DNA of 64,000 nucleotides from an uncultured Actinomycetota bacterium. GTDB taxonomy: Bacteria > Actinomycetota > Actinomycetes > JACCUZ01. Below, piece by piece: positions 816 to 46,373 of this stretch (within the stretch, counting starts at the first letter, position 1; every line of letters starts with the position of its first letter). The notes under the pieces were generated by a model, which was not told where the DNA came from, ran no database searches, and was given only the letters and a program-made list of their open reading frames with translations. The stretch spans positions 28,797 to 92,796 of the forward strand of contig CAWHJC010000017.1 in the NCBI GenBank assembly GCA_963829565.1, written 5' to 3'. The translations under genes were made by a program, and so were the position numbers.

Positions 816-817
816 CG

Positions 818-3568: not shown

Positions 3569-3584
3569 CCCCTCCCCGATCTTT

Positions 3585-5861: not shown

Positions 5862-5864
5862 CGG

Positions 5865-6488: not shown

Positions 6489-6540
6489 CACTCCCGGATC
6501 AGGGCACGTCAATGGGGGGTGGAGGGTCCGGGGGTGGATG

Positions 6541-6819: not shown

Positions 6820-7012
6820 TTCCAGGGCCCCAGCCTAGGTATGACCCGGTTTGGCACGCCATGACCCGCCTGGGCCATTCCCCAGGTGGCCCGCAGGGGT
6901 CACTCACCGGAACCGCACCCTCACTGCTGAGGGGGTCACCTGGGTGACATGTCCCCCGAAGAGCAACATCCGGGCAAAGTCGCTTGCGCGGACCGGCTCA
7001 CGTCCGGGCTCA

Positions 7013-13281: not shown

Positions 13282-13370
13282 GGGACGCGAGGGCAGGGGC
13301 AGCGTTCATCCGACGTTCGGCGTCCCGTCACGCCGGACAGGAGCCAGCCGCGACTCGTCGGCGCACAATC

Positions 13371-15562: not shown

Positions 15563-15814
15563 CTACGGCTTGGCGGGAGCGTGCGGCTCGGGAGCGCCAT
15601 GGCGCAGCTCGTCACGCACCCGCCGCTCCACCAGGATCGGCAGGTAGGTGGTGACCCGGACCTCCCCGAACTCGTCGAGGACAGAGGTCACCATGTCCCG
15701 CAGGGACGCTTCTGGCAGGTCCTCGAGCCGGGGCCGGAGCACGTTCACCAGATCGGTGACGGGGTCCGTGTCCGCCTCGGTCAGCTGTACGTCAGGTCGG
15801 GCGTCCACGGTCAT
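15563..15814 (-). CDS. Three-helix-bundle dimerisation domain protein (Rv0898c-like)
   Basis: [70 protein letters not shown] is a conserved actinobacterial small-protein family. Confidence 0.6.
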
Positions 15815-15960
15815 GGTCGCGACGATGGCACCTCCGGGGTCCAGCCGCCAAGGGGCCAACGGGCTCTGGCAGCCCCTGGCGGGCGTGTCGTCACCTCGTG
15901 TTTGCCTGTTGTTCACCTCCGCCCCTATCCAAGCCGCTTCGGCCCGGGCAACCTGAGCCG

Positions 15961-18177
15961 GTGACTGACCGCCCGCTGCCGCAGGCCGCCTCGGAGCCCG
16001 AGCCCCGACGCTTCGCCGACGACAGCGCCGAGGAGGTCGAGGAGGCAGCCGCGGCCAGCCTGCCGACTCCTTCGGCAGCCGACCTGCCCGCAGTCCGGTT
16101 CACCGACCGGGAGAGCAGCTGGCTGGACTTCAACGCGCGGGTCCTGGAGCTGGCGGAGGACGGGTCGGTCCCCCTCCTCGAGCGCGTCCGGTTCGCCGCC
16201 ATCTTCGCGCGCAACCTCGACGAGTTCTTCATGGTCCGCGTCGCCGCCCTCCGGAGACGGGTCGCGGCCGGCATCACGACCCCGAGCCCCACCGGGGCGA
16301 CGCCGCGCGAGCGGCTCACCCGCGTGTCCGAGGTGGCACACCGGCTGGCGACCCGGCACAGCGAGCTCTTCGCCGAGACGCTGCGTCCCGCACTCGATGC
16401 CGCCGGCATCCGTCTGGTCACGTGGGGCGAGCTGGACGAGCTCGAGACCAAACTGATGCGCGAGTTCTTCACCGAGCGAATCCTGCCGGTGCTGACTCCC
16501 CTGGCGGTGGACCCGGCACACCCCTTTCCGTACATCTCCGGGCTCTCGCTCAACCTCGCCGTCGTCGTCCAGGACGCCGAGTCGGGCGGCGAGCACTTCG
16601 CTCGGGTGAAGGTGCCCCCGCTGCTGCCCCGTTACCTGCCGGCAGACGACGGCTGGTCCCGGTTCGTGCCCGTCGAAGAGGTGATCGCAGCACATCTGCC
16701 CGACCTGTTCCCCGGGCTGACGGTGCTGGAGGCGTCCTCGTTCCGCGTCACCCGCAACGAGGACCTCGAGGTCGACGACGACGTCGACAACCTGCTACAG
16801 GCCCTGGAGCTCGAGCTGTCGCGCCGGCGGTTCGGGACCCCGGTGCGTCTCGAGGTTGCCGACGAGATGAGCGACCGGGTGCTGGCCCTGCTGGTGCGCG
16901 AGCTCGAGATCAGTGACGCCGAGGTCTACCGGCTCCGCGCACCGCTCGACCTCGCGGCACTGTGGCTGCTCGCCGACCTGGACCGGCCGGACTTGCGGTA
17001 CCCCGCGATGGTGCCTGAGACACCGGCGGCTCTCCGACCGACCGAGGGTGGGCAGGACATCTTCTCCGCCCTGCGGCGAGGTGACGTGCTGCTGCAGCAC
17101 CCCTACGACTCGTTCGCCACGACCGTCCAAGCGTTCATCGAGCAGGCGGCGAACGACCCGGCCACGCACGCCATCAAGCTGACTCTCTACCGGACCAGCG
17201 GTGAGTCCCCCATCGTCGACGCCCTCGTCGACGCGGCGATGGCTGGCAAGCAGGTGCTGGTCGTCGTCGAGATCAAGGCGCGCTTCGACGAGAAGGCGAA
17301 CATCCGCTGGGCCCGCAAGCTCGAGCAGGCGGGCTGCCACGTCGTCTATGGACTGGTCGGCCTCAAGACCCACTGCAAGCTGGCCCTCGTCGTCCGGTCG
17401 GAGGCCGACGCCGGGCTGCGTCGCTACGTGCACGTCGGGACCGGCAACTACAACCCGAAGACGGCTCGGGTCTACGAGGACATCGGCGTGCTCACAGCTG
17501 ACCCGGTCGTCGGCGCCGACGTGGCCGACCTGTTCAACCACCTGTCCGGCTACACCAAGCACATCGACTACGACTCGTTGCTCGTGGCACCTGACACCCT
17601 TCGCAGCGGCCTGTCGGACCTCATCCGGCGCGAGGCACGCAATGCCGAGAGGGGGCTGCCCGCCGGCATCTCGGCCAAGGTCAACAGCCTGGTCGACGCG
17701 TCCCTGATCGACGAGCTCTACCTGGCGTCCCGGGCGGGAGTGCCGATCGACCTGCTGGTCCGAGGGATGTGCGTCCTGCGACCAGGCGTCCCCGGGCTCT
17801 CGGAGAGCATCCGGGTGCGCAGCATCCTGGGTCGGTTCCTCGAGCACTCACGCGTCTACCGCTTCGAGAACGGCGGTGACCCGATGTTCTGGATCGGCAG
17901 CGCCGACATCATGGACCGCAACCTGGACCGCCGCGTCGAGGCGCTTGTGCGGGTCGGCGACGAGAAGGGTCGTCGCCAGCTGGACGAGATTCTGGACCTC
18001 GGGTGGCAGGACGACATCGACTGCTGGACGCTGTTGCCCGACGCGACGTGGCGTCGCTCGTCAGTCGGCTCGCCCGCGGGCGGCGACGAGTCGCCGGACG
18101 GCCGGGCTCTCACGGACTACCAGCAGCTGATCGTGGCACGCCGCGGGGCCGCCCACGGCGTCAGCGACCATGAGTGA
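15961..18177 (+). CDS. ppk: Polyphosphate kinase 1
   Basis: ~740 aa; ...[40 protein letters not shown]... and the C-terminal PLD-like HKxxD region (HCKLALV). GTG start at 15961 is in frame. Confidence 0.9.
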
Positions 18178-18710
18178 TCCGTCGTCGGCAGACGATCTGA
18201 GTCGGACCGGCCGAGCTAGCGACGGCAGAGCGATCGTGGTGGTCCGCCATGCGAGCGCCGGGAGCCGCAAGCAGTGGGCCGGGGACGACGACTGAGCGGC
18301 CGCTTGACGAGCGCGGGCACGCCCAGGCCGAGGCTCTGGTGCCGGTGCTCGCGGACTACCACCTGCACCGCGCCTATTCGGCCCCCGTCGTCCGGTGCCT
18401 GGAGACCATTGCGCCGTTCGCGCGCGCGAGCGGCCTGCCGGTGCACCAGGAGCCACTTCTCGCCGAGGAGGGCGCTGCCAAGGACGCCGACGGGGCGGTC
18501 GAGTGGCTGGTCGGCATCGCGGCGCTGCCGGAGTCGTCGATCGTGTGCACGCAGCGCGGCACGCTGACGGCAGTGTTTCCCGACCTGATGCGACGGCTCG
18601 GGTATCCCACGGAGGAGGTCCCCCGACTGGGCAAGGGCCGGGTGCTCGTCCTGCATCTTGCCGGGCCCGACCAGCTGGCCTCCGTCGACAGGCTCCCCAG
18701 ACCGTTCTGA
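18171..18710 (+). CDS. SixA-like histidine phosphatase family protein (frameshift ~18290)
   Basis: MSDPSS...[21 protein letters not shown] then frameshift into ORF 18249..18710 ([17 protein letters not shown]...). The RHA/G motif of the histidine-phosphatase superfamily is present. ATGA overlap with the ppk stop. Confidence 0.6.
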
Positions 18711-18797
18711 GTGCTGGACGCGGGCCGTCATCCGCTGTTCACACACCGGCCGGGCAGTCGCCCTTCGCGACACACCTCCGTTTCCTAGCGTCGCGGT

Positions 18798-19511
18798 GTG
18801 ACTCCGACACAACGCGGCGGACCCTTCGACGTGGTCGTCGTGAGCGACACCGAGACCGACCCGGCCAAGATCCTCCCGGGCATCCAGGGGTCCGTGCTGC
18901 GGCCCTGTGTGGTGACTCCCCGCGAGGTGGTCACCCTTGTCCCCCCACCCACGTGCGTCCTGCTCGACTGGCGAGCAGCCCGCGACCGGGCACTGCACGT
19001 CGTCGAGCTGCTCCGGGGCCGGGACCCGGCTGCGCCCGCGATCCTCGTTGTCCTCGGGGAGGACGCCCTGTCGGAGCTCGACGAAGGGTGGCAGGTCGAC
19101 GACGTCGTCCTGCGGACCGCCTCAGCCGCCGAGGTGTCGGCGCGGGTCCGCCTCAGGACCGCTGCCGCCGCGCGGGCCGCAGGACGCCTCGTCGACGGCA
19201 TCGAGCACGGCCCGCTGCGCATCGAGCGCAGCACCCACAGCGTCCTGCTCGACGGCCAGGAGGTGTCGCTGACGTTCCGGGAGTTCGAGCTGCTGGCCTA
19301 CCTGGCTGAACGGCCGGATCGGGTGTGTGGCCGGGCTGAGCTGCTCCACGTGGTGTGGGGCAAGTCGTCGATGAAGGGCGCCCGCACCATCGACGTGCAC
19401 GTCGCGAGGCTCCGCCGCAAGCTGGGGCACCGACACGGCGCACTGCTCGAGACCGTTCGCAGCGTCGGCTACCGGCTCAGAGTCCGTCCGCCCGCTGAGT
19501 GGGCGGCGTGA
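18798..19511 (+). CDS. OmpR-family winged-helix transcriptional regulator with atypical (degenerate) receiver domain
   Basis: C-terminal ...LTFREFELLAYLAERPDRVCGRAELLHVVWG...TIDVHVARLRRKLG...VRSVGYRL is an OmpR/PhoB wHTH. The N-terminal receiver lacks clear phospho-acceptor context. Confidence 0.7.
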   Translation: MTPTQRGGPFDVVVVSDTETDPAKILPGIQGSVLRPCVVTPREVVTLVPPPTCVLLDWRAARDRALHVVELLRGRDPAAPAILVVLGEDALSELDEGWQVDDVVLRTASAAEVSARVRLRTAAAARAAGRLVDGIEHGPLRIERSTHSVLLDGQEVSLTFREFELLAYLAERPDRVCGRAELLHVVWGKSSMKGARTIDVHVARLRRKLGHRHGALLETVRSVGYRLRVRPPAEWAA

Positions 19512-20460
19512 TGTCGAGAGACGGGAAGACCCGATCGGCTCGCTCGCCTTGCTCCAGGACGCTGCTTGCCGAGCCCACGATCCGCGAGTCCGGCCGACCG
19601 ACGAGCTCCTCGTCCTTCTCGTCGTAGGGGAAGAGGCTCAGGACGTGGCGCATGGCCTCGACCCGGCCGCGCTTCTTGTCGTTGCTCTTGATGACCGTCC
19701 AGGGCGCCGACTCGGTGTCGGTGTAGTAGAACATCGCCTCCTTGGCGTCCGTGTACCGTCCCCAACGGTCGAGCGACGCGAGGTCCGTCGGCGAGAGCTT
19801 CCACTGCCGGACCGGGTCGACCTGCCGGATCACGAACCGGGTGTGCTGCTCGTCGCGGGAGACCGAGAACCACAGCTTGACCAGGTGGATGCCGGACCGG
19901 ACCCACATGCCCTCCAGCTGTGGGGCCTCCCGCATGAACTCTCGGTACTCCTCGTCGGTGCAGTAGGCCATCACGTGCTCGACGCCGGCCCGGTTGTACC
20001 AGGACCGGTCGAACAGCACGATCTCGCCGGCGGACGGCAGGTGCTCGACGTATCGCTGGAAGTACCACTGCGTGCGCTCGCGTTCGTTCGGCTTGGCCAG
20101 CGCCACGACCCGCGCGCCTCGCGGGTTGAGGTGCTCCATGAACCGCTTGATCGTGCCGCCCTTCCCGGCGGCGTCCCGGCCCTCGAAGACGATGACGAGC
20201 CGCTCGCCGGTGTCCTTGATCCACTCCTGCAGCTTCAGCAGCTCGATCTGCAGCAGCCGCTTGATGCGGTCGTAGTCCTCCCTCACCATGCGGGACTCAT
20301 AGGGGTAGCCCTCCCGCCAGGTGTCCACGGGAGTGCCGTCCGCCCGCAGCAGGAGCGGGTCGTCGTCGGCGTCGTCGACGACCCGGAACTGGGTCAGGTC
20401 GAGACGGTCCGAGATGTCGTCCACGGGTCGCCTCCTCCGGCATCCGACGCCACCAGGCAT
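19477..20460 (-). CDS. ppk2: Polyphosphate kinase 2 family (polyphosphate:nucleotide phosphotransferase)
   Basis: ...YESRMVREDYDRIKRLLQIELLKLQEWIKDTGERLVIVFEGRDAAGKGGTIKRF...FDRSWYNRAGVEHVMAY... is PPK2 (Walker A GKGG, lid motif). Confidence 0.85.
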   Translation of the reverse strand: MPGGVGCRRRRPVDDISDRLDLTQFRVVDDADDDPLLLRADGTPVDTWREGYPYESRMVREDYDRIKRLLQIELLKLQEWIKDTGERLVIVFEGRDAAGKGGTIKRFMEHLNPRGARVVALAKPNERERTQWYFQRYVEHLPSAGEIVLFDRSWYNRAGVEHVMAYCTDEEYREFMREAPQLEGMWVRSGIHLVKLWFSVSRDEQHTRFVIRQVDPVRQWKLSPTDLASLDRWGRYTDAKEAMFYYTDTESAPWTVIKSNDKKRGRVEAMRHVLSLFPYDEKDEELVGRPDSRIVGSASSVLEQGERADRVFPSLDITPPTQRADGL

Positions 20461-20581
20461 TGCCGCACACACGACCGGACGCGAGGCGACGGAGAGGTGA
20501 ACGCGAAGTGTCCGGACGGCGGACAGCGACGGTCCGCCGGCGGACCGACTGTTCACCAACTCCGGCTAGTCTCCGGACACC

Positions 20582-22095
20582 ATGACGACCCCGGCGCCGG
20601 ACCTGCAGCTCCCCGACGGCGCGGCACTCGATCTCGGCGGCCGTGGCGGACGCCCTGGCCGCCAGGTTCGACGTCACCACGGGACCCCGTGAGCTGCTCC
20701 ACAGGACCCGGCTCGACACGTTCGACCGGCGGCTGGCTGCTGCCGGGCTCATTCTCGAGCACCAGACCACCGGGTCCTCGGAGCGGCTTATGCTGCGCGG
20801 GCCGGGCACCCCGAGCGGCCAGGTCGTGGTCCCGACCGAGGCCCTTCGCTGGCCGGCTCTGGCGGACGCTCTTCCGCCCGGCCCGGTGCGGGATGCCGTC
20901 GCACCCGTCATGGGGATCCGCGCCCTGGTCAGCGTGACCGACGACCGTCGTCGGGTACGCCGGCTGGAGCTGCGCAACGGCGACCAGAAGCTGGTCGCCC
21001 GCGTAGAGGCCGACGAGCCGGCCGGCGCGGGCTCCACGTCGCCGGCCTCGGTGACGGTCCAGCCGCTGCGGGGTTATGACGATCAAGGGCGGTGGGCGCG
21101 TCCGGTCGCTCACGGCCATCGGCCTCCGCCCGGTCGAGCCGGCTGATGCTCAGCCGGTGCGGCACCCGGCGCCGACCGTCGACCTGGACAGAGGGACCCC
21201 CGCGCCCGTGCTGCTGGCCGTCGAGCTCGGGGCGTTCCTCGCGGCGATCCGCGAGAACCTCCCGGGCCTGCTCGCCGACATCGACACCGAGTTCCTGCAT
21301 GACGTCCGCGTCGCCGTGCGCCGGACTCGGTCGACCCTCAAGCTGGGACGCCCCGCGCTGCCCGCGGAGATGCGGGACCGCTGGGAGCCGGCGTTCCAGT
21401 GGGTAGGAGACCTCACCACCCCTGTCCGCGACCTCGACGTCTACCAGCTCGACCTCCCCGCCATGGCGGGCTGGCTCGTCGCGGCCGAACCAACGGACCT
21501 GGAACCGTTCGAGGCCCACCTCGGTCGCCGACGTCGCGCCGAGCGCCGAGCGCTGGTGCGCGGACTGCAGTCCGCCCGGTTCGAGCAGCTGCTCACCGAC
21601 TGGCAGCAAGCGTTGGCCGAGCTGGCGGCGGGCCTGCAGTCCGATGACGGTCTCGACGCGGGGGAGCTGGCGGACCGCAGCATCTCGCGCGCTGTCCGTC
21701 GGGTGGCGCGAGGGGGGCGGGTCATCGACGGGGACTCGCCGGCCGAGAGCCTGCACACGCTGCGCAAGCGCTGCAAGGAGCTCAGGTACGCGCTCGAGGT
21801 GTTCGCCCCGGTGACGGACAAGGCCGACCGCAAGCAGGCCGTCGCCGACCTGAAGGTGCTGCAGGACGTCCTGGGCCGCTTCCAGGACGCCGAGGTGCAA
21901 CGCATCGCCCTGCGCGGCTTCGCTGCCGAGATGATGGCCGACGGGACGTCGGCTCAGGCCGTGCTCGCGATGGGCGAGCTGGTCGGGCACCTGGACGGCG
22001 AGCAGGACCGGGCCCGGCATGAGTTCGACGCGGTGTTCGCCCGGTTCGTCCGGCCGGCCAGCATCCGGCGGCTGCGCCGACTCGGGGGCGCCTGA
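20582..22095 (+). CDS. CYTH + CHAD domain protein (polyphosphate-granule-associated family), frameshifted
   Basis: N-terminal CYTH-like fragments (ORFs 20643..21146), then CHAD (ORF 21076..22095: ...FLHDVRVAVRRTRSTLKL...LRKRCKELRYALEVFAP...). Confidence 0.7.
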
Positions 22096-22833
22096 TGCGG
22101 GTCCTGGCGACGTACAACATCAAGGGTGGTGTGGGAAAGACGTCGACGGCCGTGAACCTGGCCTACCTTTCCGCGCGCGACGGGATGCGAACGCTCCTGT
22201 GGGACCTGGACCCGCAGGGCGCGGCGACCTTCCTCTTCCGGGTCAAGCCACGTGTCAAGGGCGGTGGCAAGGCCCTGGTGACCAGGAAACGGCCGCTCGA
22301 TGCGGCCATCAAGGCGACCGACTTCGACGGGCTCGACCTGCTGCCCGCCGACTTCAGCTATCGCCACATGGATCTGCAGCTCGACGACACCAAGCGCCGG
22401 ACGCGGCGCCTGGGCCAGCTGCTGAGCAGCGTCGCCGACGACTACGACATCGTCTTCCTGGACTGCCCGCCGAGCGTCTCGCTGGTGTCCGAGAACGTCC
22501 TGCACGCCGCGGACGTCCTGCTGGTCCCGCTGATCCCGGCGACGTTGTCGCTGCGGACGTTCGACCAGCTCACCAGGTTCGTGGCCGACGCGGACGGGAA
22601 GCACCCCGAGCGTCGTGGCGTTCTTCTCGATGGCTGACCGGCGGAAGCGGCTGCACCGTGAGGTGATCGACGGGATCCCTCGCGACGGGGTCAGGATCAC
22701 CGACACCGTCGTGCCCGCGCTCTCGGTCATCGAACAGATGGCCGAGCACCGTGCACCCGTGCCGGTCTTCGCGCCGAGGAGCCGGGCGGCGGCGAGCTAC
22801 GAGGACCTCTGGCGGGAGGTGCGTCCACGATGA
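22095..22833 (+). CDS. ParA/MinD-family P-loop ATPase (frameshift ~22610)
   Basis: MRVLATYNIKGGVGKTSTAVNLAYLSA (deviant Walker A KGGVGKT) ...DIVFLDCPPS... Continues in ORF 22615..22833 (AFFSMADRRKRLHREV). ATGA overlap with the upstream CHAD gene. Confidence 0.8.
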
Positions 22834-23726
22834 GCCGGCCCATGGTGCGGGCCGCCGGTGGCGTCCTGTGGCGCGGCGACCCCACGTCCCCGAAGGTCGC
22901 GCTGGTGCACCGGCCGCGGTACGACGACTGGTCGCTGCCCAAGGGCAAGTCGAAGACGAACGAGCACCTGCTCGTCACCGCCATCCGCGAGGTGACCGAG
23001 GAGACCGGGTTCCGGGCGACGATCGGCCCGCGCCTCACCACAGTTCGCTATCGCGTCGTGACCGGCGGTCGGCTGGCGGACAAGACGGTGACCTACTGGG
23101 CGATGCGGTGTGCCGACGGATCGTTCAGCCCGAACCGCGAGGTCGACGAGATCCGGTGGCTGACCCTGGCAGCCGCGCGCCGGCAGCTCACCGCGGCGAC
23201 CGACCGCACGGTGCTGGACGCCTTCCTCCGAGCCAGCCGCGACACCCAACCCCTTCTCCTGGTGCGTCACGGCGCGACCCATCCCGTGGCCCGGCGCTCC
23301 CGGCGCACGAGCACCAGGAGGGACCTCAGCCGGCTCGGACGGGAGCAGGCTGCCGCCTTGGTCCCGGTCCTGAGCGCACTCGGCGCGACCCAGCTGATGA
23401 GCGCCGACGTGCCGGCCTGCACCGAGATGCTGCGGCCGTATGGCGTCACCGCCGGCCTGGCCGTGCTGGCCGATGCCCAGTTGGCCCGACGCGGCTTCGA
23501 AGGAAACGAGTCGCTCATCGCCGACCGGCTTCGCCGGGACTCCTCCGACGGGCTCCTCGTCGTCTGCGGCACGCAGCGAGTCATCAGCGGACTGGTCAGC
23601 ACCTTCGCGCACGGTTCGCCAGCCCGACCGCCTCACGACGCGGTGGTCAAGAAGGGTGGCTGGTGGCTCCTGCACCACGAGGACGGCGCCGTCCGGGCGT
23701 TCGAACGACACGATCCCGCGGCATGA
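22830..23726 (+). CDS. NUDIX hydrolase fused to histidine-phosphatase domain (MutT1-like)
   Basis: NUDIX box (LPKGKSKTNEHLLVTAIREVTEETG) followed by RHGAT...histidine-phosphatase signature (LLLVRHGATHP). Mycobacterial mutT1 is likewise linked to ppk1. Confidence 0.75.
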   Translation: MSRPMVRAAGGVLWRGDPTSPKVALVHRPRYDDWSLPKGKSKTNEHLLVTAIREVTEETGFRATIGPRLTTVRYRVVTGGRLADKTVTYWAMRCADGSFSPNREVDEIRWLTLAAARRQLTAATDRTVLDAFLRASRDTQPLLLVRHGATHPVARRSRRTSTRRDLSRLGREQAAALVPVLSALGATQLMSADVPACTEMLRPYGVTAGLAVLADAQLARRGFEGNESLIADRLRRDSSDGLLVVCGTQRVISGLVSTFAHGSPARPPHDAVVKKGGWWLLHHEDGAVRAFERHDPAA

Positions 23727-23742
23727 GTCGGCAGCGACACCG

Positions 23743-25242
23743 ATGAGGTCACACGTCGAGATCGAGACCAAGTACGACGTCCCGTCGGACGCGTTGCTGC
23801 CGGACCTGGTCGGTTCGGCCAACGTCCGCTCGTCGGTGTCCGGCGCCGTGATGGTGCTGACCGCCACCTACTACGACACCGCCGACCACGATCTCGGCTC
23901 TGCCGGTGCAACGCTCCGGCGTCGGACGGGCGGAGCCGACGACGGCTGGCACCTCAAGCTGAGGCTCAGCGGCGGCGAGCGCCTGGAGCTGCACCGCGCG
24001 CTAGGACGGGGGCGGACCCCGCCGGCCGCGCTCACCGGACTCGTCACGGCGATCGTCCGTACGGAGGCGGTCGTGCCGGTGGCGACCCTCGTCACGCACC
24101 GGACCGTCCATCAGCTGCTCGGTGAGGAGGGCGCCGTGCTCGCTGAGCTGGCCGACGATTCAGTCACAGCGCAGCGCCACGACGTGGAGGCCGTGGACCT
24201 GGCGTGGCGCGAGTGGGAGATCGAGCTCGTGGACGGCGACCGGTCGACCCTCGCCGATCTCGATGCCTCCGTCCGAAGATCGGGCATCGAGCCGGCGGCC
24301 AGCGAGTCGAAGATCGGCCGGGTCCTGGGCTCTGCTCCGACCGCGGCTGCCGCCGATCCAACGCCGATCCGACGGAAAGACCCCGCGGCGAAGGTGATGT
24401 CAGTTGCGTTGCAGCAGGCGTTGTCCGAGCTGCTGGCCGCCGACCCGCTGGTCCGGCTGGACCGGCCGGGTGCGGTGCCCCGCATGTCTCGTGCCCTCCA
24501 TCGGGTGAGAGCGGTCCTGTCATTACGCCGCCAGGTCGTCGGTGACGTCAGCGCGCCCCTCGCGGAGCTCACCTGGCTGCAATCGGTCATCTCCCCCGCG
24601 GAGCGGCTGGACGCGGCGGCGGCACAAGTCGTCGAGAACGTGACGGCTCAGCCGCGCGACCTCGTCATCGGTCCGGTGAAGCGGCGCCTCGATCGCGAGC
24701 TAGCGGGGTCTCGTCGGCGGCAGCTGACCGAGGTCAACGCGGCCCTCGACGCGGACCGTTACCTGGGGATGCTGGACAGCCTGTCGGAGCTGGCGACCCG
24801 CGATGCGGTCGGCTCTGCGTCGACGGCCCGCGCCGTGGACGTGATCCCCGACCTCGCGGATCGCGCTGTCCACCGGGCCGAGCGGCGGATCGGCCAGCTG
24901 GTCCGCGCCCAGTCCGCGGACGAGCAGCGGTGGCTGCTGGGTGGTGCGCAGCGGGCGGTCGAGCGCGCCCGGCTCGCTGCCCGGCTGGCGGCGGCGGCAT
25001 CGTCAGGGTCCCGGTCGCGACCGGAAGGCATCCTCGATGAGGCCGCTGCTGCCCTCGACGAGCTGGCGGTCAGCCGCCGCGCCCAAGAGCTGCTACGAGA
25101 TGCCGGTGTGCAGGCCCATCTCGCCGGCGAGAACGGCTTCACCTTCGGCCTCCTGCACGGCCTGGAGGCGTTGCGGGCTGTCGAGGTGCAGCGGCGCCTC
25201 AAGGTGACGCGCAAGCACCTCAAGCGTCTCCGCAAGAACTAG
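23743..25242 (+). CDS. CYTH + CHAD domain protein (second copy)
   Basis: MRSHVEIETKYDV... (CYTH N-terminus) plus C-terminal CHAD-like helical region. ~500 aa, in frame within ORF 23440..25242. Confidence 0.7.
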   Translation: MRSHVEIETKYDVPSDALLPDLVGSANVRSSVSGAVMVLTATYYDTADHDLGSAGATLRRRTGGADDGWHLKLRLSGGERLELHRALGRGRTPPAALTGLVTAIVRTEAVVPVATLVTHRTVHQLLGEEGAVLAELADDSVTAQRHDVEAVDLAWREWEIELVDGDRSTLADLDASVRRSGIEPAASESKIGRVLGSAPTAAAADPTPIRRKDPAAKVMSVALQQALSELLAADPLVRLDRPGAVPRMSRALHRVRAVLSLRRQVVGDVSAPLAELTWLQSVISPAERLDAAAAQVVENVTAQPRDLVIGPVKRRLDRELAGSRRRQLTEVNAALDADRYLGMLDSLSELATRDAVGSASTARAVDVIPDLADRAVHRAERRIGQLVRAQSADEQRWLLGGAQRAVERARLAARLAAAASSGSRSRPEGILDEAAAALDELAVSRRAQELLRDAGVQAHLAGENGFTFGLLHGLEALRAVEVQRRLKVTRKHLKRLRKN

Positions 25243-32173: not shown

Positions 32174-32764
32174 CACATCGCCTTCCGGTCCGAGGCCCAG
32201 CGCGTCCTGCTGGTCTGCGTGACGCGTAGGCCCGATGGCGACCGTAGCGACTGGGAAGCCCGCTGGCGACCGACGGAAGTGGTCGGTGAACCGGTGGCCC
32301 AGCAGACCGGCGGCGACCAGCGGCACAACCGACACTGCGAGATCCTCCGGCTGGTGATACCGGACCATGGTGACGGCGGCCAGCAGCGCCGCGAGCGCCA
32401 CCAGGACAAGCACGATCCCGCGGTGGAAACGGGCTGCTTCCGAGTGCGGCCACGGCTCGGTCGGCACGCTGATCTCCCGGCCGTGGTGCGAGCTGGTGCA
32501 GTCGGCCTTGACCGGGCAGGCGTTGCAGATCGACGGCTTGGCCTGGTACGTCATCATGCGCTGTCGCTCGTCATACATGGCTGGCCAGAGCATCTGGTCC
32601 TGCGGGACAGACCCACGCGTCGTGCTCGGGGTGGTATCGGAAGCCGGCCGTCCGGTAGCGGTCGGACCGGGCATGGCTGTGCCGCGCCAGCCGGTCCAGG
32701 GCGACCGCGACGGTCAGCAGGAACAGCGCGTAGCACGTGACGAGGAGCACCTCGGGCGACACGG

Positions 32765-35099
32765 TCACCGGTCGGCCCCCGGTTCGCCTGCCGTCACGAC
32801 CTCTCCGACCTCGGTGAACAGGATGTCGTCCGGCTCTTCCATCACCTGGTTGCTCACCCGGTAGCGGACCCCGAGCCAGCAGATCCACAGGAACGGCAGG
32901 GCGCCGCCGGCGATGAACACCACGTCCCCAGGCAGGCGCATCCATCGATGAAGCTGTTGCTCGGGATTGGTGATGAAGTCCAGCTGCCGGGCCGCGAAGT
33001 AGCCGTCGTTGACCGACTTGTACAGCTGCAGGATGCCCAGCGGGAGCAATGTTGCGAAGCACATCCAGGCCAGGCCGATATTGCAGCACCAGAAGGACAG
33101 CTGGGCGAGCCGGTCCGGCCAACGTTCCTGCGGAATCAGATAGCGGAGGCAGAACAACGCGAGGCCGATCGCGAGCATCCCGTACACACCCATCATCGCG
33201 GCATGAGCGTGGTTGGCAGTCAGCGCGGTGCCGATCTCGTAATAGGAGACGACGGGAAGGTTGACCAGGAACCCGAAGACGCCGGCGCCGAGGAAGTTCC
33301 AGAAGCCGACGGCCACCAGGAACATCACCGCCCAGCGATGCGGGAACGGCGTCGCGGACGACCGCTCCTGCCGGGAACCGAGCTGCAGGAACGACCAGGC
33401 CTCGACGGTGAGGAACGTCAACGGCGGCACCTCGGCCGCGGAGAAGAACGCCCCAGGGCCATCGTCTCCGCGGCGGTGCCGGAGAAGTAGAGGTGGTGCA
33501 TCGTGCCGATGACCCCGCCGAGGGAGTAGAGGATGATGTCGAGGTAGATGACCGTCATGGCCACCCGCTGGCGAACGACACCGAGCAGCACGAACAGGTA
33601 CGCCACGAGGACCGTGGTGAAGATCTCCAGGAAGTCCTCGACCCACAGGTGGACCACCATGAACCGCCAGAAGTCCGCGACGGTGTAGCTGGAGTCGGCG
33701 TCGGTGAGCAGCCCAACCGCGTAGAAGGCCGGGATCGCGAGCCCGGTGTAGAAGAACAGCCACGGCATGTTCATCCGGGACTGATGGCGCAGCGCGCCTC
33801 GGAGCCCGCGGAACAGCATGAAGGCCCAGAAGAACAGCCCCAGCGTCAACAGCACCTGCCAGAGCCGCCCTAGGTCCAAGTACTCCCAGCCCTGCATCCC
33901 GAGCACGTGCATTGACGACGGCAGCCACCCGTGGATGTCGAGCAGCTCCCCGATCATGGAGCCGAACACGACCACGGCGAGAGCGCCCAGCAGGCCGTAC
34001 GCCAGCCAGGACTGCCGTCGCGGTTCGCGGCCCGAGATGATGGGCGCGAGGAAGAGCCCGGTGGCCAGGAACGACGTCGCCGTCCAGAAGATGGCCAGCT
34101 GGACGTGCCAGGTGCGGACCAGGTTGTACGGCAACCACCGCGCCAGGTCGAAGCCGAAGAAGCTGGTGAGGTCGGCCCGGTAGTGCTCACTGGCCGCTCC
34201 GACCATCGTCTGGACGACGAAGAGCAGACCGACCACGAGGAAGAAGTAGGCGCACGCCCGCTGGGTCGGCGTGACCGCCACGTCGGCCGGAGGGCGGAAC
34301 GAGATGGTGTCGGCCTGACGGCCGCGCCATCCCATCCGTTCACCCCAGCGACCGAACGCTGCGAACAGCACGCCGATGCCCGCCAGGAGGACGATCAGGG
34401 ACAGCACGCTCCAGACCACGACGTTGGCCGTCACCGTGTTTCCCACCAGCTCTTCCGGCGGCCAGTTGTTGGTGTACGTGTAGTCCTTTCCGGGCGCAGG
34501 GTCGAGCCCGCCCATGCCGACCAGGCGAAGTAGGCGGTCAGTGACTTGATGTCCGCCGGGTCCGTGATCGCCTCGGGCAGCAGCCCCTTCGACGCGCTCC
34601 GCGGCCCGAAGTACGCCGTGTAGTGCACGACGAGCTCGTCGAAGGCCGCCGCCTGGACGTCGGTGTAGGTGAGGGTGTCGGTCGCGGAGTCGTACCGGTT
34701 GGTCTTGAAGTCCTCGATCACCTGATCACGCGCCGTGTCCGAGGCCGGGCCGCCGTACTCCCGGGTGGCGAAGGCTGCCGCGCGATGGAGGTAGTCGGCG
34801 GTGAAGTCGGGACCGAGGTACGCGCCGTGGCCGAAGATCGACCCGTACTCCATCAGGCCCTCGCGCAGGAACAGCGCCTGACCGGCCCGGACGTCGTCGC
34901 CGGTGTAGACCACCCGACCGTCGGACGTACGCACCTGATCGGCGATCGGTGGGTCGGCGGTGTACGCGCGGTAGCCGAGGAAGCCGAGCACAGCCATGCC
35001 GATCAGCAGCACCAGTGCGGTGACTTGGACCCAGACTCGCGAGACGAGTGCGTCGCCGCTGGGTGGCTCGAGGTGGCGACGTGGTGTCGAGACAGTCAT
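32765..35099 (-). CDS. norB: Quinol-dependent nitric-oxide reductase large subunit (qNOR, NorB/NorZ), multiple frameshifts
   Basis: N-terminus MTVSTPRRHLEPP...single TM plus periplasmic extension (ORF 34431..35522), heme-copper oxidase core (...FWRFMVVHLWVEDFLEIFTTVLVAYLF...HHLYFSG...; ORF 33418..34515) and C-terminus (ORF 32765..34138). Confidence 0.8.
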
Positions 35100-35185
35100 C
35101 GGGGCTCCTGAGGGTCGGGGCGAGTCGACCTGGCCGGCGCCTCCGTACAGCGGGGGTCGATGGTTCGGTGTGGGACGGTGACGCC

Positions 35186-41489: not shown

Positions 41490-41871
41490 ATGCAGGAGTA
41501 CCTGATGGCCGTACCCAGATTCCAGGACCTGCCGCTGGCCGACCGGGACCGCGCGTGGGATGGCGACGCCGCCGACAAGCGGGTCCGGAACATGGGCCGA
41601 CGCTAAGGACGAGCCCAACGCGAAGTACCGCGACGCGCACGTCTGGTACGACGACGACAAGCCGGAGAACTTCGGCTCGTACAAGCTGCTCATCGCCGAC
41701 GTGGTGGGCGGCAAGTTGACCGCGGTACCGCGCGGCGTGATGGCGGCCGGCGCGGTGATGGAGGGCTCACGCGGCGGCGTCGACCTGCCCAAGGGCGACA
41801 TCGACCGGGTGAAGAGCCACCTCGCGAAGTACTACGAGAAGATGGGCGACACCGCGCCCTGGGAGCGCTGA
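41490..41871 (+). CDS. Conserved hypothetical protein (~125 aa; frameshift ~41590)
   Basis: MQEYLMAVPRFQDLPLADRDRAWDGDAADKRVR | ...NAKYRDAHVWYDDDKPENFGSYKLLIADVVGGKLTAVPRGVMAAGAVMEGSRGGVDLPKGDIDRVKSHLAKYYEKMGDTAPWER* has a conserved-looking profile. Family not recalled with confidence. Confidence 0.45.
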
Positions 41872-41982
41872 CCTGCTGACGGGCTGGCGGAGCCACGTCA
41901 TCGCGGGCTGGCGGGCGAGCGGTGCATACAACGAGCCGCAGCCCCGCCAGCCGCACTCTGCCGAGACGGATTGCGCCGGCCG

Positions 41983-42324
41983 TCAGCGACCCTTCGTCGC
42001 CCGCTCGTGCTCCTCGCGGGCGCGGCGGGCCGCGTCGGAGCCCATGACGACCGCCTGGTTGCCCTCGTCCCAGATCCGGTCGCCGGCCCGGTCGAGGATG
42101 ACGGTGTCGGGCAGCTCGAACCGCGCCTCGATGAGGTCGAAGTCGATGGGCCGCGCGAGCTCCGCCGTCCAGCCGTGCGGCTGCGGGACGAAGCCGAAGT
42201 TCTCGTTGCGCCAGACGACCTCGTTGCCGCCCTGGACCAGCGCGAGCATGACCGGCGCCAGGTGGGCCATGATCGGCTCCCCGGGACGGTCCACCGGCTC
42301 GATGACCTCGCGATCGTCGCTCAT
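41983..42324 (-). CDS. Small hypothetical protein immediately downstream of the T7SS-signal toxin candidate (immunity-protein candidate)
   Basis: 113 aa: MSDDREVIEPVDRPGEPIMAHLAPVMLALVQGGNEVVWRNENFGFVPQPHGWTAELARPIDFDLIEARFELPDTVILDRAGDRIWDEG.... A GGAAGG RBS sits ~12 nt upstream; 21-nt gap after the upstream stop. Confidence 0.5.
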   Translation of the reverse strand: MSDDREVIEPVDRPGEPIMAHLAPVMLALVQGGNEVVWRNENFGFVPQPHGWTAELARPIDFDLIEARFELPDTVILDRAGDRIWDEGNQAVVMGSDAARRAREEHERATKGR

Positions 42325-42347
42325 GCCGCCCATCCTTCCCGGCGCCG

Positions 42348-43777
42348 TCACGGCGACGCCACCTCGGTGCCGATCCGCGCGTCGAGGTTCTCCATCCGCC
42401 GCCGCTCGAGCACGGTGAACACCGTGGGGTCCTTGACCAGGTCGCTCGAGCGCCGGCACGAACACCTGGCGCAGACCGCCGTCGCCGAACTGCTTGTTGG
42501 CGAACGTGTAGGAGACACCGACGTCCACCGGCTGCTCGGCCCGCAGGAAGGTCAGCTCGTCGCGATAGGTGCCGAGGTGCGGCTGCACCTGCACGCCCTC
42601 GTACAGCCGGCGCGCATCGGTCCCGACGATGTTGGCCTCCGACCCCGGGATGGTGAAGCCGGACAGCCGCAGGTCGGGCCGGGTCGACACGGTGCCGGTC
42701 GCGACGACGTCGCCCGGCTCGAGCCGTGCCGAGAACCAGCGGTCGACGCCGCCGTAGGGCGGGGTGCCCTGCGACGAAGCCGCCTGCCAGGCCGGGGATC
42801 CGGGCGGCAGGTTGGGCTCGGGCAGCGGGTGCTTGCCGAGCAGGGCGTTTCTGGGCCCGCTGCAGGTAGGTCAGCCGACCCGACTCGCCGGCGCGGTCGA
42901 GCCGCTGGAAGGTCGTCGCCACGTCGGCGAGGTCATCGACAGTCAGGGCAGCCCGCGCGCTGCGGGTCGCCACCGCGCCCGCCCCTGCGGTCGTCAGCGC
43001 CAGGATCAGGTCCGGCACCAGGTGGCCGATGGCCCGCCCCGGCGAGGTCGTCCAGGTGTCCCAGTCGACCAGCGCCTTGCCGAGCTCGACCGGGTGCGTG
43101 ACGCCGAACCACAGCCCCCGGCCCAGCGCCTCCACGTCGCGCGACCAGCCCTCGGGGTCGACCATCATCCGCACCGGCGACACCGACCAGGCGAACTCCA
43201 CCAGCCCCGTCGTCGCCTCCCACGCCCCGCGGCCGATCTCGGCGACGAAGTGCCCGGCGTCCTCCCACCATCGCGGCTCGCGCGGTGCGTCGGCCCAGCT
43301 CGCCGCGATGGTGCGCACCGCGCGGTCGCCGGCGTCGCGGACCCGCAGCCGCGCGTCGTCGAGCAGCGCCTGCGCCCGGTGCCGGCCGTCCACGCCCGGG
43401 TCGTACGTCGTCAGGGGCTCGTCCGCGGCCCGCCACGCGTCGCTGTCCCGGGACGCCTGCTCGAACAGCACCACCGCCCGCCGCGCAGTCCCCTGCGCGT
43501 CGCGCAGCTCGGCGACATAGCCGCGCACCGCGGACCCGGTCGACAGGAACGCCGCCGCCGCGTCCTCGAACTTCCCCGGCTCCACCTCGACGACGCTGCG
43601 GAACGCATCGCCCGCCGGGCCGACCCACTCGCCGGCGTGCACCGCCCGCAGCCGCGACGCCGCCCCGCCCAGCCCGGTCGCGATCGTCCGGCACCGGGCA
43701 GCCAGCAGGTCGAGGTCGTCCGGCGATCCGGGCACCAGGTCGGTCGCCAGCGCCCCGACGGCCAGCGTGGCCGTCAC
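42348..43777 (-). CDS. Putative T7SS-secreted protein: N-terminal WXG-containing T7SS_signal-like domain + central region + divergent C-terminal (toxin-candidate) domain; at least 2 frameshifts
   Basis: N-terminus ...ATDLVPGSPDDLDLLAARCRTIATGLGGAASRLRAVHAGEWVGPAGDAFRSVVEVEPGKFEDAAAAFLSTGSAVRGYVAELRDAQ has the pattern DP..L.PGDP...A..L...W.G.AA.AFR..EP..W. Middle ...LWFGVTHPVELGKALVDWDTWTTSPGRAIGHLVPDLILALTTAGAGA. The C-terminus, in shifted frames, ...ALLGKHPLPEPNLPPGSPAWQ...YTFANKQFGDGGLRQVFVPALE.SSDLVKDPTVFTVLERRRMENLDARIGTEVASP*. GTG start overlaps the upstream stop (GTGA). Confidence 0.55.
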
Positions 43778-44151
43778 GACCAGGCTCCCCAAGACCTCGA
43801 CATCACCACGCCCCGGCTCAGGGCCGACGCCGGCAGGGCGACGGTGAACGGCCCCGCCGGGTCGACCACGACGCCGTAACCCTCGGGCACCAGGTCGAGC
43901 AGGTCGGCACCCGGCGCGGACGCCCAGTCGCACTCCCCGGCGTGCGCGGCCAGCTCCGCGAGGCTGGTGTAGAGGCAGACCGCGCCGCTGCCCGGCTCCC
44001 CCACCGCCGCCACCGCAGCGGCCCCGGAAGGACCCTCGACCCGCTCGACAAACAGCGTGGCCCGCTCGAGCGCAGCCTGGAACGCAGCGGCCGGCAGCCG
44101 CCCGTCGCAGAACGCCGCGACCGCGGGAGCGAGCCCGTCGACGGCGGTCAT
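43774..44151 (-). CDS. SseB-like family protein
   Basis: MTAVDGLAPAVAAFCDGRLPAAAFQAALERATLFVERVEG...AVCLYTSLAELAAHAGECDWASAPGADLLDLVPEGYGVVVDPAGPFTVALPASAL resembles SseB-domain proteins. Confidence 0.5.
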   Translation of the reverse strand: MTAVDGLAPAVAAFCDGRLPAAAFQAALERATLFVERVEGPSGAAAVAAVGEPGSGAVCLYTSLAELAAHAGECDWASAPGADLLDLVPEGYGVVVDPAGPFTVALPASALSRGVVMSRSWGAWS

Positions 44152-44444
44152 CTCGGCCCGCCCATGGCGTCGACGAGCGTCGACTCGACGTCGAGGTAGA
44201 CCCGGCCGGAGTCGGCGAGCATCCCGGCCAGCGCCTCGGCGTCCTCGACCAGGCAGCCGAGCCCGTGGTGCCAGCGGTCGGCGAACGTGTGGACCGCCTC
44301 GGTCAGGCCGTCGTGGCCGGCGGCATCGGCCAGGCCGGTCAGCACGGCGCGCGATCGGCGGACCTCGGTGACCACGGACACCGCCTCGCGCAGCCGGGTG
44401 CCGGTCAGGTGCAGGAGCTGGGGGTCGACCTCGATCAGGCTCAC
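44148..44444 (-). CDS. Small helical hypothetical protein (98 aa), first gene of the T7SS-signal locus
   Basis: MSLIEVDPQLLHLTGTRLREAVSVVTEV...ADRWHHGLGCLVEDAEALAGMLADSG is helical; possibly a WXG100-fold-like partner. ATGA overlap with the SseB-like gene. Confidence 0.4.
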   Translation of the reverse strand: MSLIEVDPQLLHLTGTRLREAVSVVTEVRRSRAVLTGLADAAGHDGLTEAVHTFADRWHHGLGCLVEDAEALAGMLADSGRVYLDVESTLVDAMGGPR

Positions 44445-44485
44445 CCCAGCGACGGTAGAGAGTTCGCCCCGGACGGCCGGGCGAG

Positions 44486-44525
44486 TTGTCCACAGGGCGG
44501 CGGCGTACCGCCTGGATGTGGACAG
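44486..44525. promoter_or_regulatory. Inverted repeat TTGTCCACA-N22-TGTGGACAG in the divergent intergenic region
   Basis: Read directly: TGTCCACA at 44487-44494 and its reverse complement TGTGGACA at 44517-44524. Lies between the minus-strand T7SS-signal operon and the plus-strand GGDEF-EAL gene. Confidence 0.35.
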
Positions 44526-44717
44526 CCACGCGGGATATCACTGTGCGTGACCGGACTTTGCCTTCTGGTTACCTTCGTGCCGTTGGGGTGATCATCCGCG
44601 AGCCGAGGTGCGAACACGCTGGGTGACGGGGACTATGAGGCCAGCGATGGGGAGGGCGTCCTGGCGAACGACGAAGAGCCAGACGGCCCGGCGGGGTTCG
44701 CCGAGGCCGTCTTCGCC

Positions 44718-46373
44718 ATGCGCCGGGCGGCCGGGATCGACCTGGACTTCAATGCCGTGTTCGAGCGCAGCCCGGTGGGGATGGCGATGCTCGACGGCGC
44801 GGGTCGGGTCCTGCACGCCAACCGGGCGCTGGGGGCGTTCCTCGGCGTCAGCCCGGCCGGCCTGTGGGGCACCCCGCTGCACAAGCTGGCGTCGGCCGAC
44901 GACGTGGGCCGGTTCCGCGTCGGGGTGACCGAGCGGCGGCTGCGCCACGACCGCGGCCACGACCTGTGGGCCGTGGTGTCCGCGGTGTCGCTGCCGGAGG
45001 TCGGCGACAACGCCCTGCTGGTCTGCCTCGACGACGCGACCGGCCGGCGCAACACCGAGCGGATGCTGCTGCACGCGGCGCTGCACGACAGCCTGACCAA
45101 CCTGCCGAACCGCCGGCTGCTGCGCGACCGGCTCGACACCGCACTCGCCCGGTCGCAGCGCTCATTGAGCACGGTGGCGGTGCTGTTCATCGACCTCGAC
45201 CGCTTCAAGGACATCAACGACACGTTCGGCCACGAGGCCGGCGACGAGGTGCTCGTGTCGGTGGCCGCCGGCATCCACGCGGCGCTGCGTACCAGCGACA
45301 CGGTGGCCCGCCTCGGCGGGGACGAGTTCATCGTCGTGTGCGAGGACGTCACGGACCAGGGCGACGTGACCCGTCTCGCCGAGCGGATCATCGAGCACGT
45401 ACGTCGGCCGCTGACCCTCCACGGCCGCTCCATGTCGATCTCGGCCAGCATCGGGATCGCCGTCGCCGGTCCCCACGCCGAGACCGGTGACGAGCTGATC
45501 CGGCTCGCCGACCTGGCGATGTACCGCGCCAAACACCGCCCCGACACGTCCTACGTGGTCGCCGACGACTCGATCGGCCCGGCCCGCGACCTGGAGAGTG
45601 CGGCCCAGGACGGGCTGCTGGCCGACCTGCGGCACGCGATCCAGGCCGACCAGCTGGCGCTGCACTACCAGCCAGTGGTGCGGATCGACGGCGTGCTGAT
45701 CGGGCTGGAGGCACTCATCCGGTGGCAGCACCCGCGACTCGGGCTGCTGATGCCGCACGACTTCCTGCCGCGCGTCGCGGGCACCGACCTGGCCCGGCCG
45801 TTCTCCGACTGGGTGCTGCGTGCGGCGGTCCGCGACGCAGCCTCGTGGCACGACCCGAACGTCCGGGTCAGCGTCAACATGTGGGCCCGTGAGGTAGCCC
45901 GGCCCGGTTTCGCCGAGACGGTCGCGATGCTGCTGACCTGGGCGGGGCTGCAGGCCAACGCGCTCTACATCGAGCTGCACGAGCACGAGCTGCCCGAGGC
46001 CGGCCCGGGGCTGGCCGACGAGCTCGACCGGCTGCGCCGGCTCGGGGTGGGGCTAGCGATCGACGACTACGGCACCGGCGGCATGTCGCTGGCCGGGCTG
46101 CGCCGGATCCCGGTCGACACCCTGAAGGTGGACCGGTCGTTCGTGGCCGGGCTGCCGGGCAGCGCGGAGGACAGAGGCGTGGTCGCGGCCGTCGTCGCGG
46201 CGGCACGCGCGGCCGGGCGACACCCGCTGGCGTCCGGGGTGGAGACGGTCGAGCAGCTGCGGGTGCTGCGGGAGCTGGGCTACGAGAGCGTGCAGGGCTA
46301 TCTGTCCGGCGCACCGGCGCCGCTGATCGACCTGCGGACGCTCATCGCCGACCGCCGGGTCGTGCTCGACTGA
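44718..46373 (+). CDS. PAS-GGDEF-EAL protein (diguanylate cyclase/phosphodiesterase)
   Basis: Intact 551-aa ORF: PAS (...FERSPVGMAMLDGAGRVLHANRA...), GGDEF (RLGGDEF), EAL (...ELHEHELP...DDYGTG...KVDRSF...). Confidence 0.85.
   Translation: MRRAAGIDLDFNAVFERSPVGMAMLDGAGRVLHANRALGAFLGVSPAGLWGTPLHKLASADDVGRFRVGVTERRLRHDRGHDLWAVVSAVSLPEVGDNALLVCLDDATGRRNTERMLLHAALHDSLTNLPNRRLLRDRLDTALARSQRSLSTVAVLFIDLDRFKDINDTFGHEAGDEVLVSVAAGIHAALRTSDTVARLGGDEFIVVCEDVTDQGDVTRLAERIIEHVRRPLTLHGRSMSISASIGIAVAGPHAETGDELIRLADLAMYRAKHRPDTSYVVADDSIGPARDLESAAQDGLLADLRHAIQADQLALHYQPVVRIDGVLIGLEALIRWQHPRLGLLMPHDFLPRVAGTDLARPFSDWVLRAAVRDAASWHDPNVRVSVNMWAREVARPGFAETVAMLLTWAGLQANALYIELHEHELPEAGPGLADELDRLRRLGVGLAIDDYGTGGMSLAGLRRIPVDTLKVDRSFVAGLPGSAEDRGVVAAVVAAARAAGRHPLASGVETVEQLRVLRELGYESVQGYLSGAPAPLIDLRTLIADRRVVLD

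Follow-up and report, generated by a model that had tools for sequence, protein, structure and literature searches.

What does a tightly packed cassette of four genes, read from the minus strand between positions 44444 and 41983, contribute to the uncultured soil actinobacterium in which it is found? The stretch of DNA analyzed here, hereafter the window, comprises 64 kb of high-GC actinobacterial sequence (about 72% GC). An earlier note, made from its letters alone, had proposed that the cassette codes for a polymorphic toxin and its immunity protein, and had left the effector domain of the toxin unassigned. Using sequence profile searches, structure comparisons and a survey of related loci, we conclude that the locus is probably a four-gene operon that codes for an exported NAD(P)+ glycohydrolase toxin, two helper proteins and the toxin's own immunity protein. 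The toxin gene, the third of the four, occupies 42348..43777 on the minus strand, has a GTG start and codes for 475 residues once two extra bases are removed; this reconstruction draws on the three-frame translation, the G+C content of third codon positions (GC3) and comparison with homologues, and its numbering is used throughout.

A predicted NAD(P)+ glycohydrolase domain at the toxin C-terminus

The C-terminal domain of the toxin found no family in scans of Pfam or NCBIfam, and a word-seeded search of 5.8 billion proteins recovered only four relatives of its C-terminal 197 residues. A profile combining these four relatives with the window sequence (profile A2) matched the PDB chain 6xtd_A (E=2.8e-10, 43.1 bits), with positions 47-170 of the query aligned to positions 25-145 of the chain. 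The predicted NAD(P)+ glycohydrolase (NADase) core occupies toxin residues 325-448 (42432..42804, minus strand). The 6XTD structure is that of Rhs1-CT from Serratia marcescens Db10, a toxin shown to hydrolyze NAD(P)+ and placed among the broad TNT-like glycohydrolases (PMC10539506). Its toxicity depends on F1386, R1418 and Q1452, the last being a glutamine that is strictly conserved in every NADase of this kind and a hallmark of those of the TNT type (PMC10539506). In the HMMER alignment these three residues line up with F374, R405 and Q437 of the toxin, and matches extend to Q1354, Y1359, D1363, an S-G-F motif and Q1408-V1409 of Rhs1-CT. The predicted active site of the toxin accordingly comprises Q336, Y341, D345, F374 (42657-42655), Q396, R405 (42564-42562) and Q437 (42468-42466).

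These putative active-site columns are conserved at 94-100% in about 150 representatives of the family that are at most 50% identical to one another. For instance, 148 of 152 sequences have F or Y at the position of F374, 144 of 154 have R at that of R405 and 152 of 154 have Q at that of Q437. The structural model of the toxin domain displays the palm fold of the NADases, and its best structure matches are demonstrated NADases. The domain, which the earlier note could not place because Pfam has no model for the Rhs1-CT-type group and its TNT model gives no match, thus belongs by sequence to the characterized Rhs1-CT(Db10)/TNT-like NADase group, and hydrolysis of NAD(P)+ is its predicted activity.

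An exhaustive profile search (E<=0.001) showed that at least 526 sequence clusters carry this domain, usually at or near the C-terminal end of proteins that range from 70 to 4666 residues in length. Sampled members couple it to LXG and PT-TG, PT-HINT or T7SS_signal carriers; P0052, for example, has it on an LXG + PT-TG carrier. One protein, P0026 (694 residues, with a low-GC-type composition), has two tandem copies, which is unusual for a typically C-terminal toxin domain.

A conserved carrier with exchangeable toxin domains

The N-terminal part of the toxin matches the Pfam family T7SS_signal (PF21725) over profile positions 65-241 of 241 (E=1.1e-22); its score of 81.6 bits exceeds the threshold of 27 and bears out the earlier suggestion of a type VII secretion system (T7SS) signal domain at this end. 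The match covers toxin residues 11-168 (43274..43747, minus strand), and the same profile range is covered by the intact orthologue P0022. Pfam also returned a sub-threshold WXG100 signal for this region, and its WXG motif (W51-V-G53; 43627-43619) is retained in L001, P0022, P0055 and the Nocardioides toxins. The N-terminal part of the carrier contains no YxxxD/E motif. A PDB sequence search with the carrier region gave nothing meaningful, and a literature search for PF21725 gave no paper.

Between the signal domain and the effector lies a central region (residues 169-274; 42956..43273, minus strand) that had neither a Pfam nor a PDB sequence match and is kept among five aligned homologues. 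It ends with a VDWDTW...GHLVPD linker and a Gly/Ala-rich segment of moderate hydrophobicity (residues 253-271; 43021-42965). We considered a transmembrane reading of this segment but did not adopt it, since its Kyte-Doolittle maximum of 1.53 over 19 residues is borderline.

Motifs of the central region served as patterns for a locus scan with one genome per species, which found 77 loci. A full-length toxin orthologue is present in 16 loci, and in all 16 we detected both the small partner gene that opens the cassette and the small gene downstream of the toxin. About 60 others, mostly from Nocardioides, share only the first ~300 residues of the toxin, and their tblastn matches run through the central region to about query residue 306. 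The C-termini found on this shared carrier fall into 16 clusters; several of these are singletons from frame-broken or Gly/Pro-rich sequences, so that about ten represent real, unrelated types. Pfam names ART, TNT and Gln_amidase (a glutamine deamidase) among the alternative C-terminal domains. A constant carrier with swapped C-terminal domains and a co-varying downstream gene is the pattern of a polymorphic toxin, and the comparison of loci predicts this locus to be one. The earlier proposal of such a toxin with a cognate immunity gene is upheld by the Pfam domains, by the swapping of C-termini on the carrier and by the strict pairing of toxin domain and immunity gene described below.

Several of the other C-terminal domains (the L017 cluster, L028, L038, L045 and L063) had no Pfam match and are candidates for uncharacterized toxin domains. 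The L017 cluster is the commonest on this carrier, with 22 loci, and displays the motif ...NPFTGNGYTSGG.PE.... In many of the loci L017-L078, from Nocardioides and relatives, a conserved opposite-strand open reading frame (ORF) of ~1200 residues with CxxCxxC iron-sulfur motifs also precedes the toxin operon by about 1 kb, which suggests that in Nocardioides, too, the polymorphic toxin occupies a conserved chromosomal site.

A probable cognate immunity gene with no assigned family or fold

The gene downstream of the toxin (41983..42351, minus strand) codes for 113 residues if read from the ATG at 42324, or for 122 if read from the GTG at 42351. Its homologues occur in 16 of the 16 loci with the NADase domain and in none of the 62 carrier-sharing loci with other toxin domains. 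This strict co-occurrence with one toxin domain, and absence alongside the others, is a genomic signature of pairing that supports its identification as the cognate immunity gene. The ORF that the earlier note had placed 21 nt after the toxin is indeed present, but its translation may begin at the GTG at 42351, overlapping the toxin stop codon, instead of at the ATG. Close homologues of the protein have been called from the equivalent of this GTG, which would share a GTGA with the toxin stop codon, and toxin and immunity genes overlap by 4 nt in the intact orthologous locus L079. Given such a start in close homologues and the overlap in L079, the whole operon may be translationally coupled.

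The AlphaFold model of the immunity protein is confident (pLDDT 93.2). Nonetheless it found no Foldseek match at E<=0.001, no PDB sequence match below E=1.7 and, among the 18 members of the family that were scanned, no match in Pfam; RhsI1, the immunity protein of Rhs1-CT, is absent among the fold matches listed for it. Lacking a relative in Foldseek, PDB and Pfam, the protein is unrelated to the known NADase immunity proteins RhsI1, Tsi6, Tni2 and IFT. Such mutual unrelatedness is the rule among NADase immunity proteins (PMC10539506).

Operon organization and a putative two-part export signal

The four co-directional minus-strand ORFs of the earlier note are present as described, with GC3 values of 0.9-1.0 in the expected frames of all four genes. 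The coding signal lies in frame 2 for 44444-44148 and in frame 1 for both 44151-43774 and 42324-41983; in the toxin gene it lies in frame 0 from 43777 to about 42851, in frame 1 to about 42445 and in frame 2 to 42348. The stop of the first gene and the start of the second share an ATGA (44151-44148), and the stop of the second and the start of the toxin gene share a GTGA (43777-43774). A consensus scan of 41700-44800 for promoters and terminators found none.

The first gene (44148..44444, minus strand), defined by its ORF, GC3 signal and 24 homologues, codes for a small partner protein of 98 residues that is possibly EspC/WXG100-like. Across these homologues W58, G61, Y83 and E87 are invariant and form a W58-x-x-G61 motif (44273-44262) and a C-proximal Y83-x-x-x-E87 motif (44198-44184). 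Scans of Pfam and NCBIfam assigned it to no family, and the window protein in particular matched neither PF06013 nor PF10824 in Pfam. A search of the PDB with its profile returned only a designed repeat protein, which we discarded as a match between low-complexity helices. In 53 of 60 distant loci an ORF of ~105 residues lies directly upstream of the toxin and has both WxxG and YxxxD motifs, the latter 25-30 residues from the C-terminus.

The second gene (43774..44151, minus strand; ATG start) codes for a 125-residue protein that is a candidate chaperone or adaptor. The earlier description of it as SseB-like is borne out by a match to Pfam SseB (PF07179; E=2.7e-9) that spans profile positions 6-122 of 124 and, at 37.7 bits, exceeds the threshold of 21. 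Over profile positions 57-160 of 162 it also resembles the NCBIfam family NF033532, 'type VII secretion system-associated protein' (E=3.4e-9). An SseB-like gene was detected between the partner and toxin genes of 15 of the 16 NADase loci (the exception is L006; the intact locus L079 has it); the 62 distant loci yielded none. A PDB sequence search with this protein gave nothing meaningful, and the papers found by a literature search linking SseB to type VII secretion were general or dealt with the unrelated SseB of Salmonella.

Mycobacterial T7SS substrates are helical heterodimers that combine a WXG motif with a C-terminal signal, and the PE-PPE pairs additionally need EspG (PMC11217815). By analogy, the WxxG and YxxxE motifs of the partner, taken with the WXG motif of the toxin, suggest a two-part type VII export signal. 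On the same analogy we infer that partner and carrier would form a secreted pair, for which the SseB-like protein would serve as chaperone or adaptor; the toxin itself is a putative T7SS substrate.

Comparison with characterized systems and a proposed mechanism

The closest characterized relative of the effector is the Rhs1-CT domain of S. marcescens Db10, proposed as a 'Tne3' group, to which the NADase domain is related by sequence. Whereas Rhs1-CT forms the end of an Rhs cage protein that a Gram-negative bacterium delivers by type VI secretion, the domain described here sits on an actinobacterial T7SS-type carrier; the respective immunity proteins are likewise unrelated, that of the cassette having no sequence match to any PDB chain. 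The CpnT/TNT-IFT system of Mycobacterium tuberculosis is also an actinobacterial NAD+ glycohydrolase of the same general fold with an invariant catalytic glutamine. It, too, has a dedicated immunity factor, and its export depends on ESX (T7SSa), whereas here the export route is putative. A more remote sequence relation links the domain to Tse6/Tne1 and Tne2, NADase effectors of the Pseudomonas type VI system that use PAAR and Eag chaperones and whose immunity proteins, Tsi6 and Tni2, are unrelated to the one in the cassette.

In its architecture the operon resembles the LXG toxins of Bacillota and their Lap partners (e.g. the NADase TelB of Streptococcus intermedius), which likewise have an N-terminal helical carrier of the WXG superfamily, small helical partners encoded upstream that complete the T7SS signal, variable C-terminal toxin domains and a downstream immunity gene. 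The LXG carrier belongs to PF04740 and uses T7SSb, whereas here the carrier belongs to PF21725 in a host of the T7SSa type, and an SseB-like gene stands in place of a second or third Lap protein. The PE-PPE-EspG and EsxA-EsxB systems of the mycobacterial ESX loci similarly place YxxxD/E near the C-terminus of one partner and WXG on the other, with a separate cytoplasmic chaperone encoded nearby. We detected no homology in sequence between the cassette proteins and PE, PPE or EspG, and the partner has W-x-x-G rather than W-x-G; the analogy would be one of function.

These comparisons suggest a mechanism in which, within the producer cell, the immunity protein of 113-122 residues would bind the NADase domain and block its active-site cleft. 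To our knowledge all structurally characterized NADase immunity proteins block the active-site cleft of their toxin. The 98-residue partner would pair with the N-terminal helices of the toxin and supply the YxxxE motif that complements the toxin WXG, and this two-part signal would be recognized by an EccC-type ATPase, as in the EsxA/EsxB and PE/PPE pairs. The SseB-like protein would serve in the cytoplasm as a chaperone or adaptor, a role comparable to that of EspG or the Lap proteins. In a neighboring cell without the immunity protein, the delivered toxin would hydrolyze NAD+ and NADP+, and growth would stop. A bolder version of this scheme would place the immunity protein in a structurally new class of NADase inhibitors and make the SseB-like protein a hitherto unrecognized chaperone or adaptor that is dedicated to T7SSa-type polymorphic toxins and forms a three-part targeting complex with the YxxxE partner; this is conceivable, though we regard it as doubtful.

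Frame breaks in the toxin gene and the quality of the assembly

The earlier note had reported at least two frameshifts in the toxin gene, and we located two, each caused by one extra base. At the first, an extra A in an AAA run (42848..42850) falls between Gln309 (CAG, 42853-42851) and Asn310 (AAC); at the second, an extra C (42444) falls between Glu444 (GAG, 42447-42445) and Asp445 (GAC, 42443-42441). Both positions were fixed by comparison with homologues. The repaired toxin, used in this comparison with one N-terminal Val more than the 475-residue version, aligns with its homologues over the full length without gaps at either site, and the orthologue P0022 is an intact protein of 495 residues.

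Frame switches on the same strand are frequent across the entire window, with approximately 37 frameshift-like frame changes in its 64 kb by a rough heuristic count. They occur within recognizable genes (for instance near 645, 1063, 1575, 2900 and 38715 and at 58-61 kb), and the affected genes include pstS, pstC, pstB, a GAF-SpoIIE phosphatase and recB/recC/recD. In the NCBIfam matches, pstC changes frame between profile positions 58-234 and 241-295, the pstB match begins only at position 33, and that of pstS ends at 254 of 295. These breaks point to an indel-rich assembly, probably a long-read one. Consistently, orthologues in long-read metagenome-assembled genomes (MAGs) of the 'MFD' series have their breaks elsewhere (L001/L014, L015 and L016, and the first gene in L009), while those from short-read assemblies (L002, L003, L008, L011, L012 and L079) are intact. 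Given the window-wide breaks, the intact short-read orthologues and the undiminished coding signal past each shift, both toxin frameshifts most likely stem from the assembly and not from the organism. We rejected programmed frameshifting, since orthologues are encoded in a single frame and the breaks are window-wide.

Weighing the alternatives

A genuine pseudogene would be a different matter: the toxin gene would have suffered two real +1 insertions, and the immunity gene would persist as an orphan, shielding the cell from relatives that make the toxin. Two frame changes within 1.43 kb, the position of the second outside any homopolymer and the intact state of the immunity, partner and SseB-like genes all fit such a history, and orphan immunity genes are well documented (PMC10539506). 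The three frame segments nevertheless all keep GC3 values of 0.9-1.0, which implies no drift since the shifts, and neither the window-wide breaks, which extend to pstS, pstC and pstB, nor the differing positions of the breaks in other long-read MAGs, against intact short-read orthologues, would be expected of it. We therefore consider a pseudogene quite unlikely. The earlier alternative of a degraded or mis-assembled gene is thereby narrowed to mis-assembly, degradation being improbable where frame breaks occur at the background rate and orthologues are intact.

Several findings count against the reading of the locus as an operon for a T7SS-exported NADase. On the enzymatic side, the model of the toxin domain has only moderate confidence (mean pLDDT 63.6), and Pfam TNT (PF14021) gave no match to the window domain at E<=1, the sole TNT match among its relatives being that of P0052 (E=0.097); in view of this missing match the domain is a sister group to Pfam TNT and not a member of PF14021. 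On the side of export, no T7SS core gene (EccB, EccC, EccD or mycosin) was found by Pfam in the window between about 5 and 53 kb, while the first 5 kb and last 11 kb, judged by eye or partly with NCBIfam, resemble pstSCAB and recBCD. Likewise, no large EccC-like ORF was found in the flanks of 78 related loci by a screen for ORF size and Walker-A motifs. T7SS dependence rests on a Pfam family labeled 'putative', on motifs and on weak EspC and NF033532 matches: PF10824 (T7SS_ESX_EspC) weakly matches just three of the 24 homologues of the first gene (best E=0.0078), and the NF033532 score of the second gene, 37 bits, falls below the cut-off of 85, making it a relative of that family and not a member.

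Some of these points lend themselves to the view that the toxin is not a T7SS substrate at all and that it leaves the cell by another route or by lysis, or acts inside it as part of a toxin-antitoxin-like module such as MbcT-MbcA, which degrades NAD+. Such a view would account for core genes that were not found in the window or beside the related loci, for the merely 'putative' status of the T7SS_signal family and for a partner below any WXG100 or EspC threshold. T7SS substrates, for example the products of PE/PPE and LXG genes, are, however, commonly encoded apart from the apparatus. A conserved carrier of ~275 residues with a WXG motif and a conserved upstream YxxxD/E partner would also be left unexplained, the NADase domain recurs on LXG/PT-TG and PT-HINT modules typical of secreted polymorphic toxins, and the exchange of about ten kinds of toxin domain on a single carrier is a signature of such toxins rather than of toxin-antitoxin modules. 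On balance we judge it unlikely that the toxin bypasses a T7SS. The target could also be eukaryotic cells, such as protist grazers or fungi, rather than competing bacteria. The precedent is CpnT/TNT of M. tuberculosis, the best-known actinobacterial ESX-aided NADase, which acts on host macrophages and also has an immunity factor (PMC10539506), and NAD+ is universal, so that the enzyme itself does not set the target. Rhs1-CT and the LXG and PT-HINT members are, however, interbacterial systems, and the hosts of the cassette are uncultured soil actinomycetes; a eukaryotic target seems improbable to us, and competing bacteria remain the favored one. As for the reaction itself, the C-terminal domain might transfer ADP-ribose to protein or nucleic acid instead of simply hydrolyzing NAD+. 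This we hold to be very unlikely, since every one of its best matches, in sequence and in structure, is a proven NADase and its catalytic position is occupied by a glutamine (Q437, a column with Gln in 152 of 154 family sequences) rather than by the glutamate of the R-S-E and H-Y-E transferases.

Genomic context and inheritance

The earlier note had taken the cassette for accessory or horizontally acquired content, a view that its neighborhood does not support: the order Zincin_1 gene, GGDEF/EAL gene and cassette is kept in most of the orthologous MAG loci, with the Zincin_1 gene in 13 of 16 and the upstream GGDEF/EAL gene also in 13 of 16. Identities to the orthologous loci are 64-77% for the GGDEF/EAL protein, 74-89% for the Zincin_1 protein and 55-72% for the toxin, indicating similar divergence, and one of the orthologous MAGs is labeled Sporichthyaceae. 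The GC content of the cassette (0.75-0.79) only slightly exceeds that of its flanks (0.69-0.75). With horizontal acquisition thus rejected on synteny, the cassette looks, from these comparisons, like a stable, vertically inherited element in a clade of uncultured Actinomycetes and not like a recent arrival.

Two genes for GGDEF-EAL cyclic-di-GMP proteins adjoin the cassette, at 44718-46373 (plus strand) and from 46375 to about 48400 (minus strand). The former, which is the syntenic neighbor in 13 of 16 loci, is divergent from the first gene of the cassette across a 273-nt intergenic region. On the other side a small gene at 41500-41871 (plus strand) is convergent with the immunity gene; its product (MAVPRFQDLPLADRDRAWDGDAADKRVR... 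then ...YRDAHVWYDDDKPENFGSYKLLIADVV...) has no family assignment, and it is apparently split by a frame change near 41590. Elsewhere the window is dense in phosphate and polyphosphate genes (1-3650, 5200-8300, 15760-20570 and 20650-25200), namely pstSCAB, a PhoU-like DUF47 protein with a PHO4/PitA transporter, PPK1 and PPK2, along with two CHAD-domain proteins, a CYTH domain, a NUDIX protein, a histidine phosphatase and a GlnR-like regulator. A NorB-type nitric oxide reductase (COX1 with a NorB cytochrome c-like domain) is encoded beside an SPFH/Band 7 protein at about 32700-35100 (minus strand), and an actinobacterial/chloroflexi VLRF1-type release-factor-like protein (PF18859, E=7.5e-30) at about 13100-13900 (plus strand).

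Significance

T7SS-exported antibacterial toxins have been studied almost entirely in Bacillota, and those of Actinomycetota are mostly predictions from comparative genomics. Toxins on WXG carriers were predicted in Actinobacteria in 2012 (PMC3482391), and the Rhs1-CT toxin domain family was characterized in 2023 (PMC10539506). The kind of toxin and its NADase family are thus already known; some novelty lies in the immunity protein without relatives and in the arrangement of partner and SseB-like genes. For annotators of this genome the practical point is that the damage to the toxin gene is most likely an assembly artefact. For the toxin family, the Rhs1-CT-type NADase group, which lacks a Pfam model, is extended to at least 526 sequence clusters on many types of carrier, and the known NADase inhibitors are joined by one further unrelated immunity family. 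For the Actinomycetes that carry it, this locus, its ~15 orthologues and ~60 carrier-sharing Nocardioides relatives display one conserved operon design, namely a YxxxD/E partner, an optional SseB-like protein, a WXG carrier toxin and an immunity gene, which is testable in cultivable Nocardioides.

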